From contig JAMPDF010000004.1 in the NCBI GenBank assembly GCA_023665755.1, forward strand, positions 20,456 through 84,455: a stretch of 64,000 nucleotides of DNA, written 5' to 3'. The DNA is from Prevotella sp. (GTDB lineage Bacteria > Bacillota_I > Bacilli_A > ML615J-28 > CAG-313). The notes beneath the pieces are model-generated. The model saw nothing but the letters and a program-made list of their open reading frames with translations, was not told the DNA's origin and made no database searches. A program made the translations under genes and the position numbers. Positions 1 to 4,444 of the stretch are shown piece by piece (the stretch's first letter is position 1; each line of letters begins with the position of its first letter).

Positions 1-650
1 AATTGGTTAATGGAAATCCAATCATTTTGATCTTCTTGACGATAACTACCATCTACCTTTAATCGATATACCATTGGAATCTCATTCTTATTTTGTTCTT
101 TAAATAAAATATCAATTGAAACTGCCTTTGGATTATTATTGGTTAACATAAATGTATATATTGCACGCTTTCCTGGATAAATTACTCTATCAAATGAATT
201 TTTACCAAATATATTCCATTGTGTAGTTACAATTCCTCCATCCGTTTCACTGATAATCAGGTCTGTTGGTCGTGAATTATTCTGTGTTTTTTGCAATACA
301 ATAAACATAATCAACAAAGTCAATAAAGCAAGTAACGCACATCGAATAACAAATAATAAGGCTTTTGTTGCATGATATAATGAACCAAAATATTGATGAT
401 CAATCGTAAATAGATTATAATATTGATCACTGCTACCTAATACTTGATTACTTCTTTGATCTATAATCGTATACCGAACAGCTTTATGTTCTAATTTCAA
501 GTTCGGAATGGGTTGGATGAGACGGATAAATTCATCATCATCTATTAGAATTGATTGATTTTTTATTCTTCCAATTGTCTTTCCTTTCGCATTTTTAATA
601 ATATGAAAATACACATAATAACTTAATATTTTTCTTTCTTTTTTTTTCAT
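1..650 (-). CDS. Hypothetical membrane protein (partial, N-terminal part; continues past window start)
   Basis: Open frame from the ATG at 650..648 (revcomp) to position 1 with no stop. Starts MKKKERKILSYYVYFH and has one TM segment (ALLFVIRCALLALLTLLIMFIVL). Lies directly downstream of the sipW and tasA-like genes on the same strand. Not in the ORF track because it is truncated at the window edge. Confidence 0.45.
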   Translation of the reverse strand, partial: MKKKERKILSYYVYFHIIKNAKGKTIGRIKNQSILIDDDEFIRLIQPIPNLKLEHKAVRYTIIDQRSNQVLGSSDQYYNLFTIDHQYFGSLYHATKALLFVIRCALLALLTLLIMFIVLQKTQNNSRPTDLIISETDGGIVTTQWNIFGKNSFDRVIYPGKRAIYTFMLTNNNPKAVSIDILFKEQNKNEIPMVYRLKVDGSYRQEDQNDWISINQ

Positions 651-850
651 ATGATACTCCTTGAAATATTCATTTTGAATTTCTACCAAAATAGACACAC
701 TTGAATCCACTTTGGTAGAAATGTGATATAATCATCACCTACATCTTTCATTTGAACTAAAAATCATCTGTATAGATATAGAGAAGCCACAATTACTCTA
801 TACCTATACATGATTTGTGGCTCTTGTTAAAAGTTTTTATAAAATACAAA

Positions 851-1420
851 TTAATCTACTTGTACGAATTCTACTATTAATTTAACTGAAACTTGTGGTG
901 CAGTTGTTGCCGTACCTAAAGTAGTATCTGTGCTATCATTACCACTAAAAGCCCATGCCCAATTCAATTCCCATGTAGTTCCGGTAGTATCATTCATATC
1001 TAGCGTTATTTCAGCTTGATATGAATTTCCGTCTGCAAAAAGTGTTTCTTCACCTAAAGTAAATGTAAGTGGAATATTACTAGTATTTGTCAATTCAAGT
1101 TTTACAATTGCTTTTGCATTTACTTCACCTGTATTTTTGAAAGTAAAACTTGCATTACCTTTTGTTCCTGGTGCAATTAAACCTGCCTTTACATCTGTTT
1201 CTTCTTTACCATTCGTGTCTAATATAGTAGCAAATAGATTAAAATCTATAGTATTTGTAGACAAATCTACACCATCAAATGACCATTTCGCTACTGTAGC
1301 TGTACTTGTTCCTGATACTGAACTTGTATATTTTGCCCATGTACTTGAAACTAGAGATAATGAGATGAATGCAACAAAAGTAACAATCAATCCCAATGCA
1401 AAAATTTTATTTTTTTTCAT
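851..1420 (-). CDS. TasA/camelysin-like secreted protein with SipW-cognate type signal peptide
   Basis: True start is MKKNKIFALGLIVTFVAFISLSLVSSTWAKYTSS, with the ATG at 1420..1418 and an AGGAGA RBS. The signal peptide ends in AKYTSS like TasA/CalY-family substrates of SipW. The mature region is Thr/Asn-rich with a TasA-like pattern (T.D..L, PG, F.N.G) and sits immediately downstream of sipW. Confidence 0.55.
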   Translation of the reverse strand: MKKNKIFALGLIVTFVAFISLSLVSSTWAKYTSSVSGTSTATVAKWSFDGVDLSTNTIDFNLFATILDTNGKEETDVKAGLIAPGTKGNASFTFKNTGEVNAKAIVKLELTNTSNIPLTFTLGEETLFADGNSYQAEITLDMNDTTGTTWELNWAWAFSGNDSTDTTLGTATTAPQVSVKLIVEFVQVD

Positions 1421-1498: not shown

Positions 1499-2200
1499 TT
1501 ATAGTGGAGATTCATCCTTAGTTTCTTGGTTTTCTGAGGATGCTACTTGTGCTTGCTTTAGCAAAGACAACTCTGCTTCAAGCTCTGCCGTTTTCTTTTC
1601 ATTTTTTTTCTTTTCTTTGTTGTTAGTAATCCAGTCTACACCAAGCATTACAAATAGTGGTACACCTAATAGGGTAAGTATGCCCACTGGTGTTTGTAAA
1701 AACATAGCTATACTGCCTATTCCCGCAATTCTGCTTTTGTAAATACCTATGATTTGACTATATTTGATAGTGGAAACTACAGGTGAATTATAATCACCTT
1801 GGGTTTCTAATGCTTTTTCTCCATCATACATTAAGGGATTTCCTTCTTGATCATACATAGTAATAATCCTATGTGTAACAATCAATCCATTATCTTCTTT
1901 GTAAGTAATAATATCACCTACATTTAAATCTTCAGGATTTACCTTTTGTATAAAGATTAAGTCTCCTTCATTAAAGGCACCAGTACCTGTTTTGGGATTA
2001 ATTGTCATAGAGGGGGATAGTACAATCAAAGGGGCAGTATCAAATACCATGGGTATTTGATTGGGATGAATTGCACTTTTTACCACAATAACCATATTTA
2101 CAATAATAATAGGTAGAAAAATGATGATTAAAACTATTCCAATTATGTTAAATATATGAATTCTTCTAGAATTTGTTTTTTGATATAATCGATGAGCCAT
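1499..2200 (-). CDS. sipW: Signal peptidase I, SipW (ER/archaeal) type, with a C-terminal TM plus charged coiled-coil tail
   Basis: SPSM catalytic-Ser motif (IVLSPSMTINP) and a conserved His (LIVTHRI). Likely ATG at 2200..2198 with RBS AAAGGAG; the ORF track begins at an upstream in-frame TTG. Genomic pairing with a TasA-like gene. Confidence 0.75.
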   Translation of the reverse strand: MAHRLYQKTNSRRIHIFNIIGIVLIIIFLPIIIVNMVIVVKSAIHPNQIPMVFDTAPLIVLSPSMTINPKTGTGAFNEGDLIFIQKVNPEDLNVGDIITYKEDNGLIVTHRIITMYDQEGNPLMYDGEKALETQGDYNSPVVSTIKYSQIIGIYKSRIAGIGSIAMFLQTPVGILTLLGVPLFVMLGVDWITNNKEKKKNEKKTAELEAELSLLKQAQVASSENQETKDESPL

Positions 2201-2232
2201 ATTCAAACTCCTTTCTCATTGATTTTATATCA

Positions 2233-2382
2233 TCCATCTATTATTATAATAGGCGCATATAATAATGGTATATTGTAAGAAAGTGGATGAATCATATTAT
2301 TGTTGTCACAAAAAAATATCTTTTATGCCTATAAAATTGTTTTATTAGCCGAAAAAAAAGCCATCTATTATAATAATAGATG
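2233..2382. repeat. Pair of 18-bp perfect inverted repeats (2233-2250 catctattattataatag, 2365-2382 ctattataataatagatg) flanking a 114-bp segment; candidate recombinase-controlled invertible element
   Basis: Read directly from the sequence. Each copy is also internally palindromic (ctattat N ataatag). The pair lies between the sipW start (RBS at 2209-2215) and the tyrosine recombinase gene. The enclosed segment contains TTGTCA ... TATAAAAT promoter-like hexamers pointing rightward in the current orientation. Confidence 0.4.
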
Positions 2383-2477
2383 ACTTTTTTATTAGAATTG
2401 TTTTATTATTTTAAAGATGGGTCAAATAAACCTTGGGGGATGAACAAAATATAATTTTTTACTTTGGAGGTATTTTA

Positions 2478-3416
2478 ATGATATTAAAAGATTGGTTATT
2501 CATTTGGTTAAACAAATATATGAAATATGCTATCAAATTAAAGACATTTATTTGTTATCAAAATATTTGTAATAATCATATTATTCCTATATTAGGAAAT
2601 AAGCAGATGAATGAGTTAACAGTTGATATAATTCAAGAGTTTTTATATCACAAATTAGAAAAGGGGAACTTAAAGACAGGTAATTCACTTTCTATCAATT
2701 CATTACTTGCTATTGTATCTGTTTTGAAACAAGCCTTAAAACAGGCTACTATATTGAAAATTGTTGAACTAGATTGTACCATTGGATTAAAAATTCCTAG
2801 TAGTTATGAAAAGCAAGTAGAAGCATTTGATCGTCACGAACAATCCATAATTGAACATTTTTGTTTGCATCATCCGCATAAAAATTATATTGGTATTCTC
2901 ATTTGCTTATATACAGGTATTCGCCTAGGTGAATTGCTCGCTTTAACCTGGACAGACATTGATTTTGAAAGAGGTTGGTTAACCATCAATAAAACAGTAT
3001 CTTTTATTTGCCAAAATGGGAAATATACAAAATATATAGATTCACCTAAAACAAAACAGTCTAATCGAACAATTCCTCTTTCTAAAGAACTCCTTCTATT
3101 ATTAAAAGAACAAAAAAAAGCCCATTGTTCTATATATGTTTTGTCTACTAAACAGGGTAATATTGTATCTAGTCGCTCTTACCAAAGAACTTTTCAAAAT
3201 CTTTTAGAACGTTGTCAAATTCCCTATAAAAACTTTCATGCTTTAAGACATACTTTTGCTACTCGTGCTTTAGAACTAGGTATGGATGTTAAAACACTTT
3301 CAGAAATTTTAGGACACAAAGATGCAACAATCACACTGAATCGATATTCACATTCTTTAATGGATTATAAAACATCCTTATTAAATAAATTAGGTGAAAA
3401 TTTGGGAAAAATTTAA
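2478..3416 (+). CDS. Tyrosine-type site-specific recombinase (integrase/XerCD family), stand-alone
   Basis: N-terminal SAM-like core-binding domain. Catalytic motifs are present: R in YTGIRLGELLALTW, HxxR in HALRHTFAT, and H plus Y in LGHKDATITLNRYSH. RBS GGAGG precedes ATG 2478. No arm-binding domain; about 312 aa. Confidence 0.8.
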   Translation: MILKDWLFIWLNKYMKYAIKLKTFICYQNICNNHIIPILGNKQMNELTVDIIQEFLYHKLEKGNLKTGNSLSINSLLAIVSVLKQALKQATILKIVELDCTIGLKIPSSYEKQVEAFDRHEQSIIEHFCLHHPHKNYIGILICLYTGIRLGELLALTWTDIDFERGWLTINKTVSFICQNGKYTKYIDSPKTKQSNRTIPLSKELLLLLKEQKKAHCSIYVLSTKQGNIVSSRSYQRTFQNLLERCQIPYKNFHALRHTFATRALELGMDVKTLSEILGHKDATITLNRYSHSLMDYKTSLLNKLGENLGKI

Positions 3417-3508
3417 TTGTCCTTAGTTTTTAATTATACACTTTTTTCATTCATCAGTCAAGATATATTCTTTCATTTTATCTTGATATCCTACTAATTT
3501 CTCCTTTT

Positions 3509-4444
3509 TTATGCAATATATGAGATTTGAAAAGCAGGTAACTGTTCATTACGATTTGTCGATTCATTTAATCCTAATTTTGTGACGCTAAAGTCTATAC
3601 TAAACGTATTTCCTAAATAGTCAAATACAAACATTCCTTTTTCCATTCTACCATTACAATGAGTGATATACCATTCTTTTGTCTTTTCAATCTGCTCTTC
3701 TAGTACTGTAGTTTGACTTGTAATATAATCAGGATAATAGAAAATATAATATCCCTCTTTTGCTTCTGTATCTACATACTTATCTACATTTTGATCCTTT
3801 ACATTCTTACCAATCAATTTGTCTAATTCAATATTATCAGATACGATATATTTGGTATCGTATGGCAAAGGAAGTAGTACGAGTTTATTTGCATTATTTT
3901 TCTTGACAACCATAAATGGCATATGCATATATATCATCATATTTTCCACATAACGATAGACATAATACGTTTTTCCTTCACTCACAAATGTGCGATAGGA
4001 ATAAGAAATTCTTGTACCATCTTCTAGTGTCACTATTATCATTTCTTCTTTAGAAATAGTGCCTTCATCTAAAACTAATCTATCTTTACCTACTCTAGCT
4101 TGAAGTGTATCCTTTTGTTGTTCTACTGAACTTGTTACAATAATCTGATCTTTTTGATATGCTTCTAAATGATTTTTAAAGGCATCACTTAAAGCATATT
4201 GATCATTTTGAACAAAAACAATTTTATTATCAGTTGAATAATTTGAAATTTTTACACCATCATAGTCAAAACGAACCATAGGAAGTGGTGTAGAATATAA
4301 TAAATAATCTTGATACGTCTTTGGAATCGTAATATCTATCCCATGCTCTTTCACAATATATTTATTTTGTAAATTGGAACAACTACATCCTGAAAGAGTC
4401 AATATGCTTATGAGCCCTAAAAATAATCCTATTATCCTTTTCAT
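3509..4444 (-). CDS. Hypothetical lipoprotein
   Basis: Start MKRIIGLFLGLISILTLSGCSCS (lipobox LSGC), with ATG at 4444..4442. No recognisable domain. Confidence 0.5.
   Translation of the reverse strand: MKRIIGLFLGLISILTLSGCSCSNLQNKYIVKEHGIDITIPKTYQDYLLYSTPLPMVRFDYDGVKISNYSTDNKIVFVQNDQYALSDAFKNHLEAYQKDQIIVTSSVEQQKDTLQARVGKDRLVLDEGTISKEEMIIVTLEDGTRISYSYRTFVSEGKTYYVYRYVENMMIYMHMPFMVVKKNNANKLVLLPLPYDTKYIVSDNIELDKLIGKNVKDQNVDKYVDTEAKEGYYIFYYPDYITSQTTVLEEQIEKTKEWYITHCNGRMEKGMFVFDYLGNTFSIDFSVTKLGLNESTNRNEQLPAFQISYIA

Follow-up and report, generated by a model that had tools for sequence, protein, structure and literature searches.

Does the short intergenic region that separates a sipW operon from a divergently oriented tyrosine recombinase gene contain a DNA switch? 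The question concerns a stretch of 64,000 nucleotides (nt) of contig JAMPDF010000004.1 (assembly GCA_023665755.1, deposited as Prevotella sp.), which we refer to as the window and whose numbering is used for all positions below; a prediction made from its letters had proposed that the recombinase inverts a segment upstream of sipW. Comparison with other assemblies demonstrates that the segment inverts in natural gut populations and is a genuine phase-variation switch. We regard it as very probable that this element is a site-specific inversion switch (inverton) for the sipW fibre operon, in which the recombinase would flip a 112-base pair (bp) segment carrying an outward-directed promoter. The proposal of an invertible switch adjacent to its recombinase is supported by inverted contigs at the locus itself, by the conservation of the module among relatives, and by an intact recombinase that is not of the Xer type.

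The intergenic region (2201-2477, 277 bp, 24% GC) lies between the divergent sipW and recombinase genes. A repeat search finds in it two arms that are complementary over 18 of 18 nt (100%) at a spacing of 112 nt: the left arm, IRL, at 2235-2252 (CATCTATTATTATAATAG, with the core CTATTAT-T-ATAATAG), and the right arm, IRR, at 2365-2382 (CTATTATAATAATAGATG). The arms, and the 112-bp invertible segment between them (2253-2364), are features without an assigned strand; the orientation seen in the window, with the putative promoter directed towards the recombinase, is called here the reference orientation. The two perfect 18-bp inverted repeats of the original prediction are therefore real and its right arm is correctly placed, but its left arm (2233-2250) was 2 nt off and its segment of 114 bp has to be shortened accordingly. 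The repeat pair is far beyond chance: in 300 dinucleotide-shuffled versions of the 277-bp region, perfect inverted repeats reached 13 nt at most, compared with the observed 18, and a search of the 64 kilobases for the arm motif, allowing up to 3 mismatches, returns these two sites and no others (0.42 expected; four matches reached in none of 100 shuffles). The caution that each repeat copy is itself palindromic was justified: the 15-nt core CTATTAT-N-ATAATAG is palindromic except for the central base, which is T in the left arm and A in the right one, and the right arm is enclosed in a larger palindrome (2354-2390) with an A8 run inside and a T6 run (2385-2390) outside. The polarity of the arms would be given by the asymmetric centre of the core together with the outer CAT/ATG bases.

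The orientation of the segment can be read from other metagenome assemblies of the same locus. The recombinase and SipW of the window are themselves absent from the contig index, and members of their 90% clusters were looked up instead; the loci compared encode proteins about 88-95% identical to those of the window. The same order (sipW operon, switch, recombinase, an open reading frame (ORF) of 311 amino acids (aa), tgt, pgi, pgm) recurs in many samples, and the left arm is unchanged in contigs L008 and L031-L049. Ten distinct contigs carry the full-length segment in the orientation of the window (the window itself, L008, L031, L032, L037, L039, L042, L044, L047 and L048; L031 is the same contig as L041 and L037 the same as L130, each being counted once). 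The same orientation was read by eye in L131 and L132, which stand outside this count because of possible overlap with the earlier contigs. In L049 (ENA ERZ28437000, a contig assembled with k = 119), the start of sipW and the left arm are followed by the segment as the reverse complement of its L041 version (111/111 positions) and then by the start of the right arm. L036 (Logan SRR29547554) begins with ATTATATGCGC directly followed by CTATTATAATAATAGATG, so that its right arm follows the left inner flank in reverse complement (11/11), and L133 (Logan ERR13984881) ends with the left arm and ATGACTTTTTT, which is the inverted left junction (11/11). A single orientation in all populations, which the original prediction had named as an argument against a switch, is thus not what is found.

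The two configurations are not confined to different samples. In L040, from the same sample ERR13984881 as L133, the right arm comes directly after AAAAAAGTCAT, as in the reference right junction, and therefore both configurations co-exist there. Moreover, contigs end at the arms: the first base of L038 is that of the right arm, the last base of L046 is that of the left arm, and L034 begins inside the right arm. Such breaks are what a bubble of mixed orientation in the assembly graph produces. An assembly error is an unlikely source of the inverted contigs, because the 18-nt arms are shorter than k (119 and 31) and the assembler cannot flip the segment without supporting reads.

Two variants of the locus have lost parts of the switch. 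In L043 (ERZ28436646 NODE_269; L043:1230-1500 corresponding to window 2348-2393), a 46-nt deletion between the short direct repeats AAATTGTTT(T/G)ATTAG (window 2334-2348 and 2395-2409) has removed the whole right arm and the hairpin discussed below; this variant would be locked with the promoter towards the recombinase and with no terminator between them. In L001 (L001:5200-6560), a sister metagenome-assembled genome (MAG), the similarity to the window (about 89% DNA identity) starts only at window position 2853, the recombinase is reduced to a 5'-truncated remnant of 138 aa from the 3' part of the gene, the switch is absent, and the sipW operon is replaced by genes for a 254-aa ORF and a 724-aa secreted protein, ftsW and murG. 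Several samples contain the same remnant of 138 aa (P0125, P0132, P0133). In the scan of single-genome contigs L001 was the only close locus and, being devoid of the switch, it is uninformative with respect to orientation.

Is this a peculiarity of one locus? Relatives of the recombinase, about 310 aa long, number in the thousands, and those with 53-61% identity possess the same module, with arms of 14-18 nt that are 103-132 nt apart. In the metagenome scan, relatives with at least about 52% identity generally carry arms of 14-17 nt, spaced by 103-128 nt and located 100-240 nt upstream of the recombinase start, and relatives with less than 50% identity show no comparable inverted repeat within 450 nt upstream and were not counted as members of the module. 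A pattern common to the arms of the family is C-TATTw-NNN-TAATA-s, the centre of which is variable and asymmetric. The 18-nt arms of P0002 (61% identical), CGCCTATTTGCTTAATAG and CTATTAAGCAAATAGGCG, are separated by exactly 112 nt, and two of its contigs open with the right arm, from its first base on. P0055 (56% identical) has 17-nt arms, also 112 nt apart, and its ten independent assemblies with identical flanks are split evenly, the segment being forward in 5/10 and present as the exact reverse complement (112/112) in the other 5/10. In a third lineage the segment of L058 is the reverse complement of that of L063 (105/105) and L066 (104/105). Hence the module inverts in two further lineages besides that of the window.

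These comparisons bear on two alternatives to an active switch. The first is that the two orientations represent fixed differences between strains, left by rare and ancient inversions, with a recombinase that may be inactive at this site. It could draw on the fact that orientation was read from assemblies of different samples, from strains whose proteins are 88-95% identical and which mostly share one orientation, as well as on the loss of the right arm in L043 and the truncated recombinase in the sister lineage L001. We consider it very unlikely, given that both types of junction occur in sample ERR13984881, that many contigs break exactly at the arms, and that three separate lineages, one of them split 5:5, show both orientations between otherwise identical flanks; furthermore, the inverted segment matches the reverse complement exactly and has accumulated no differences, and the catalytic residues of the recombinase are intact. 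The second alternative denies the switch altogether and regards the repeats as a static bidirectional terminator, as palindromic operators of the SinR type, or as attachment sites of a mobile element. Flanked by an A-run and a T-run, the right arm does resemble a bidirectional terminator, and near-palindromic arms are reminiscent of operators, but the segment is observed inverted, the geometry of the repeats is conserved together with the recombinase across different cargos, and there is no tRNA gene and no gene of a phage or an integrative and conjugative element (ICE) in the vicinity, with only housekeeping genes downstream. Its probability is, in our opinion, negligible.

A further component of the module is the enzyme. 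The gene at 2478-3416 (plus strand; ribosome-binding site GGAGG at 2466-2470) encodes a 312-aa tyrosine recombinase, a putative invertase, and both the ORF and its domains (Phage_integrase, PF00589, 9.6e-28, and Phage_int_SAM_3, PF14659) confirm the stand-alone recombinase that had been reported from the sequence. Residues R149, K172, H254, R257, H280 and Y290 are invariant among 19 homologues, and the predicted catalytic set is intact. Identity with the chromosomal XerC or XerD, which the original prediction had listed as a finding that would speak against a dedicated invertase, is ruled out by scores far under the NCBIfam equivalog cut-offs (60.3 bits for XerC against 335.15, and 43.1 bits for XerD against 329.6). 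The NCBIfam models of "tyrosine-type DNA invertase" are not reached either (22-23 bits versus cut-offs of about 221). The closest solved relative is the catalytic domain of the Tn1549 integrase (E = 6e-24), with XerA and XerD matching much more weakly, and the best match among phage genomes is 39.7% identical. An integrase of a phage, ICE or transposon was considered and rejected, as the 64-kb window contains no tRNA gene and the vicinity no phage or ICE genes, the neighbours are housekeeping genes, and the 312 aa comprise the core-binding and catalytic domains only. The absence of a phage, ICE or tRNA context noticed earlier is thereby borne out: a lipoprotein-like ORF, tgt, pgi and pgm follow the recombinase, and the locus is syntenic across strains. 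The co-occurrence of this gene with the repeats suggests that its product catalyses the flip.

What, then, does the inversion control? An alignment of the promoter-proximal segment end across 13 loci of the family gave a consensus that consists of TTGnt, about 17 nt, an extended -10 element TGnTATAAT, an A-rich stretch, a half-stem that contains G+C, the right arm, the complementary half-stem and a T-run. In the window, the predicted -10 region at 2326-2337 (plus strand; TGCC-TATAAAAT, with the box at 2330-2337) aligns with the extended -10 element of the family, and a -35-like hexamer, TTGTCA, is found at 2303-2308 on the same strand, 21 nt upstream of TATAAA. In the relatives the -35 elements are TTGAT or TTGCT at 17 nt. 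The promoter-like hexamers that the original prediction had seen facing the recombinase thus keep their direction, which is that of the conserved -10 box, but the spacing of TTGTCA is non-canonical and the pair is not called by the promoter scan. Three other candidates were discarded. A -10 box formed by the TATAAT of the arms, and a promoter located at the segment's left inner end and directed leftwards, both lack a matching -35 element and are not conserved; in TTGTAA-16-TATTAT at 2273-2300, the -35 hexamer is not conserved in L031.

The consensus continues beyond the promoter into a terminator-like hairpin at 2354-2390 (plus strand), composed of the A-run and GCCAT within the segment, the right arm, and GAC with T6 outside, which is complete only in the reference orientation. 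In the window the RNA of the reference orientation folds with -13 kcal/mol (z = -2.98) and is followed by U6, and in the flipped orientation GAUGAUAUAAAAUC follows the hairpin and a U-run is lacking. In the family locus L009 the reference fold reaches -18 kcal/mol (z = -4.9), again followed by a U-run, and the flipped orientation gives a shorter hairpin with no proper U-tract. In silico, therefore, a structure resembling an intrinsic terminator is formed in one orientation only, and this feature is kept across the family.

From these elements we propose the following mechanism. The 312-aa recombinase would recombine the two 18-nt arms and thereby flip 2253-2364 with its outward-firing promoter (-10 box at 2330-2337). 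In the state captured in the window the promoter would be directed at the recombinase, its transcript would immediately meet the hairpin and T-run at 2354-2390, and sipW would be left with no promoter, i.e. OFF. After inversion the promoter would face sipW, and as the hairpin at the left arm would then have no U-run, transcription should read through into sipW, the gene for a 189-aa subunit and the genes downstream (ON). The cargo has hardly any alternative, because only 34 nt (2201-2234) separate the start codon of sipW from the left arm and leave no room for a promoter of its own, as had been noticed from the outset. The window is most likely in the OFF state for sipW, because its -10 box faces the recombinase and the hairpin of the right repeat is followed by a T-run. 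That the promoter of the segment drives sipW, the ON/OFF polarity and the function of the terminator are all predicted from the arrangement of these elements.

Several observations weigh against this interpretation. Most assemblies of the locus (10 full-length contigs, the window included) share one orientation, and the evidence of inversion comes from related strains and not from the isolate of the window itself. The flip could be catalysed by a recombinase acting in trans, as it is co-occurrence that links it to the gene at 2478-3416. The TTGTCA of the window lineage lies at the non-canonical distance of 21 nt from the -10 box, the consensus promoter scan does not call this pair in the window, and in the ON contig the same scan finds no sigma-70-type site with 16-18-nt spacing directed towards sipW. 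Likewise, a terminator scan with a G+C rule does not call the AT-rich hairpin, and the folds of the P0055 lineage are weak in both orientations and differ little. Our argument for the promoter and the hairpin relies on family conservation and folding, since the consensus scanner calls neither.

Given these weaknesses, the promoter of sipW might be sought elsewhere. As in the cwpV locus of C. difficile, the segment could invert while the promoter resides outside it on the recombinase side, and orientation would only set a terminator on the leftward transcript. There is indeed a weak promoter-like site on the minus strand just outside the right arm (TTGACC-17-AACAAT, 2425-2397), and minus-strand 2390-2354 forms a hairpin followed by U8, a good leftward terminator that exists in the reference orientation only; the cwpV switch itself is the precedent (PMC2784873). 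Under this arrangement the polarity would be the same, with the window OFF. However, AACAAT is a poor -10 box, and an external promoter would make it hard to explain why the family has kept the internal extended -10 box, canonical in the relatives, at a constant spacing to the right arm, so that we consider this arrangement unlikely. It has also to be asked whether the switch could mainly regulate the recombinase or a tiny RNA, with sipW transcribed from elsewhere, e.g. by read-through. In the majority orientation the promoter does face the recombinase, and together with the hairpin it would yield a transcript of about 45 nt in the orientation of the window. In addition, Rfam matches the Mycoplasma small RNA MCS4 to 2327-2391 (plus strand), from the -10 box through the hairpin, but with 27.1 bits and E = 0.33 this is far under the gathering score of 56, and the match probably reflects terminator-like composition only. 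Since the hairpin and T-run lie between the promoter and the recombinase, and since sipW has no other upstream space and, throughout the family, the left arm adjoins the beginning of a divergent cargo gene, this possibility appears highly improbable, and a promoter within the segment that serves the sipW operon remains our preferred explanation.

The cargo in the window begins with sipW (1499-2200, minus strand), which encodes a 233-aa signal peptidase I of the archaeal/endoplasmic reticulum type (TIGR02228 of NCBIfam, 60.1 bits versus a cut-off of 51.85). Its ribosome-binding site, correctly foreseen but located at 2209-2215 in the original prediction, is AAAGGAG at 2208-2214 (minus strand), 7 nt before the ATG at 2200. 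The next gene (851-1420, minus strand) codes for a secreted beta-sandwich protein of 189 aa, which has a signal peptide at its N-terminus and the conserved motif TWAKYTS and is probably a fibre subunit processed by SipW. Among solved structures, Foldseek matches it best to the TasA fibre, and it has no match to the hidden Markov models (HMMs) of TasA or camelysin; its assignment as a TasA-like fibre subunit is plausible but weakly supported. The third gene of the cluster (2-650, minus strand) is cut by the start of the window and encodes 283 aa in L031. HMM searches with the 189-aa, 283-aa and 408-aa cargo proteins returned nothing significant. The order of sipW and genes for proteins of about 200, 280 and 410 aa is kept in L031, L037, L135 and L139. 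In distant Bacilli MAGs (the sipW operons of P0154 and P0137) the sipW cluster is conserved with no adjacent recombinase and no clean repeat, and therefore the switch is a lineage-specific acquisition.

A few further observations concern the same genes. The 200-nt gap that follows the fibre-subunit gene (660-850, minus strand) contains a hairpin (GAGCCACAA ... TTGTGGCTtC), possibly an attenuator between the gene for the major subunit and the downstream accessory genes. A low-complexity ORF of 201 aa on the plus strand (1137-1742) overlaps sipW and the fibre gene in antisense and almost certainly does not represent a gene. In the NCBI records, P0249, which is 100% identical to the 189-aa protein of the window, and P0121, a 312-aa member of the 90% cluster of the recombinase, are assigned to MAGs that bear the names "Prevotella sp." and "Staphylococcus sp." (locus tag NC182_06235); these names look wrong, because the gene content and a sister MAG named "Bacilli bacterium" point to low-GC Bacilli.

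Beyond the window lineage the module serves different genes. At every locus of the family a divergent cargo gene starts 1-66 nt from the left arm (34 nt in the window), and this gene almost always encodes a DNA methyltransferase. The classes of cargo include N6_N4_Mtase with a DEAD/ResIII helicase, EcoRI_methylase, C-5 DNA_methylase, Eco57I / N6_Mtase, N6_Mtase, and a MmeI-like methyltransferase; among the family loci compared, only the window lineage carries sipW at this position. In L019-L028:1-3651 and L009:1-4662, relatives of the switch precede a Type III-like N6_N4 methyltransferase and a DEAD/ResIII helicase, with HamA next in L009. Among strains with identical recombinases the methyltransferase varies in length (583, 629 or 656 aa), which suggests that target-recognition domains are swapped on top of the ON/OFF switching. 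At the locus of L058, L063 and L066 (about 1600-3720), where both orientations are found among the three contigs, the cargo is a 700-aa protein with no Pfam match.

How does this module compare with known switches? In the fimS switch of E. coli a 314-bp segment bounded by 9-bp repeats is inverted by two small dedicated recombinases of about 200 aa, FimB and FimE. The likeness to fimS (summarised in PMC2784873) consists in short inverted repeats around a small segment, with a putative promoter in the present case, an adjacent tyrosine recombinase, and ON/OFF control, predicted here, of an operon for a surface fibre. On the other hand, the recombinase described here possesses an N-terminal SAM-like domain, has the Tn1549 integrase as its closest solved relative and falls outside the FimB/FimE family (22-23 bits versus about 221), and its switch has an orientation-dependent hairpin and T-run on one repeat. 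With respect to the cargo, the obvious reference is the tapA-sipW-tasA operon of B. subtilis, which is controlled by the repressors SinR and AbrB and not by DNA inversion. Both systems have a SipW-type signal peptidase beside a small secreted beta-sandwich subunit; they differ in that sipW comes first here, the accessory genes are different, and the subunit has no TasA/camelysin HMM match. No link between sipW/TasA-type systems and DNA inversion was found in the full-text literature, as far as its open-access part is concerned.

The RecV-dependent switches of C. difficile (cwpV, flgB and cmrRST) resemble the present one in belonging to a Firmicute, in their tyrosine recombinase and in an orientation-dependent terminator, which is predicted here. 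In cwpV, which has a surface protein as its cargo and RecV as its tyrosine recombinase, an intrinsic terminator is formed in one orientation only (PMC2784873). The inverted region of cwpV, however, contains no promoter, whereas a conserved -10 box lies within the segment here, and RecV is encoded elsewhere and serves several switches, in contrast to the adjacent recombinase described here. With an adjacent recombinase and a -10 box inside the segment, each module of the family would be self-contained. Its mechanism is best described as that of a fimS-type inverton, with the putative promoter inside, combined with a predicted cwpV-like orientation-dependent terminator. Invertible promoters next to recombinases, with both orientations present in metagenomes and with links to methyltransferases and surface structures, have been reported from the gut (PMC11892184, PMC11741434), but the surveys of the PhaseFinder type mainly describe promoters of Bacteroidota or hsdS shufflons, and few invertons are reported in Bacillus-like Firmicutes (median 0 per genome; PMC11892184). 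Neither this recombinase family nor its geometry of about 112 nt is described in the open-access inverton surveys consulted, in which no dedicated search for the family or the geometry was made.

What we describe is, in summary, a known kind of phase-variation switch with a cargo, the sipW fibre operon, that we have not found described under such control. A guess made from sequence has thereby become a validated phase-variation switch in an uncultured lineage of gut Bacilli, a group with very few reported invertons. The implication is that production of a surface fibre processed by SipW would be bet-hedged by DNA inversion, in contrast to the repressor control of the TasA paradigm. The fibre likely matters for adhesion or matrix formation, and it is likely exposed to phages and to immunity. 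At the level of the family, we put forward, with some reservation, the broader hypothesis that the recombinase and the switch of about 112 bp make up a self-contained, horizontally portable cassette for phase variation in gut Firmicutes, comprising an invertase, an outward promoter and an orientation-dependent terminator on one repeat, and attached to at least seven unrelated types of cargo, mostly DNA methyltransferases or restriction-modification and defence operons; the SipW-dependent fibre operon would then be the first TasA-type system shown to be phase-varied by DNA inversion. In this compact form of about 1.3 kilobases, the cassette would place many DNA methyltransferases and restriction-modification systems under ON/OFF control, it is relevant to epigenetic phase variation and phage defence in the gut, and it could serve as a small, self-contained genetic toggle.

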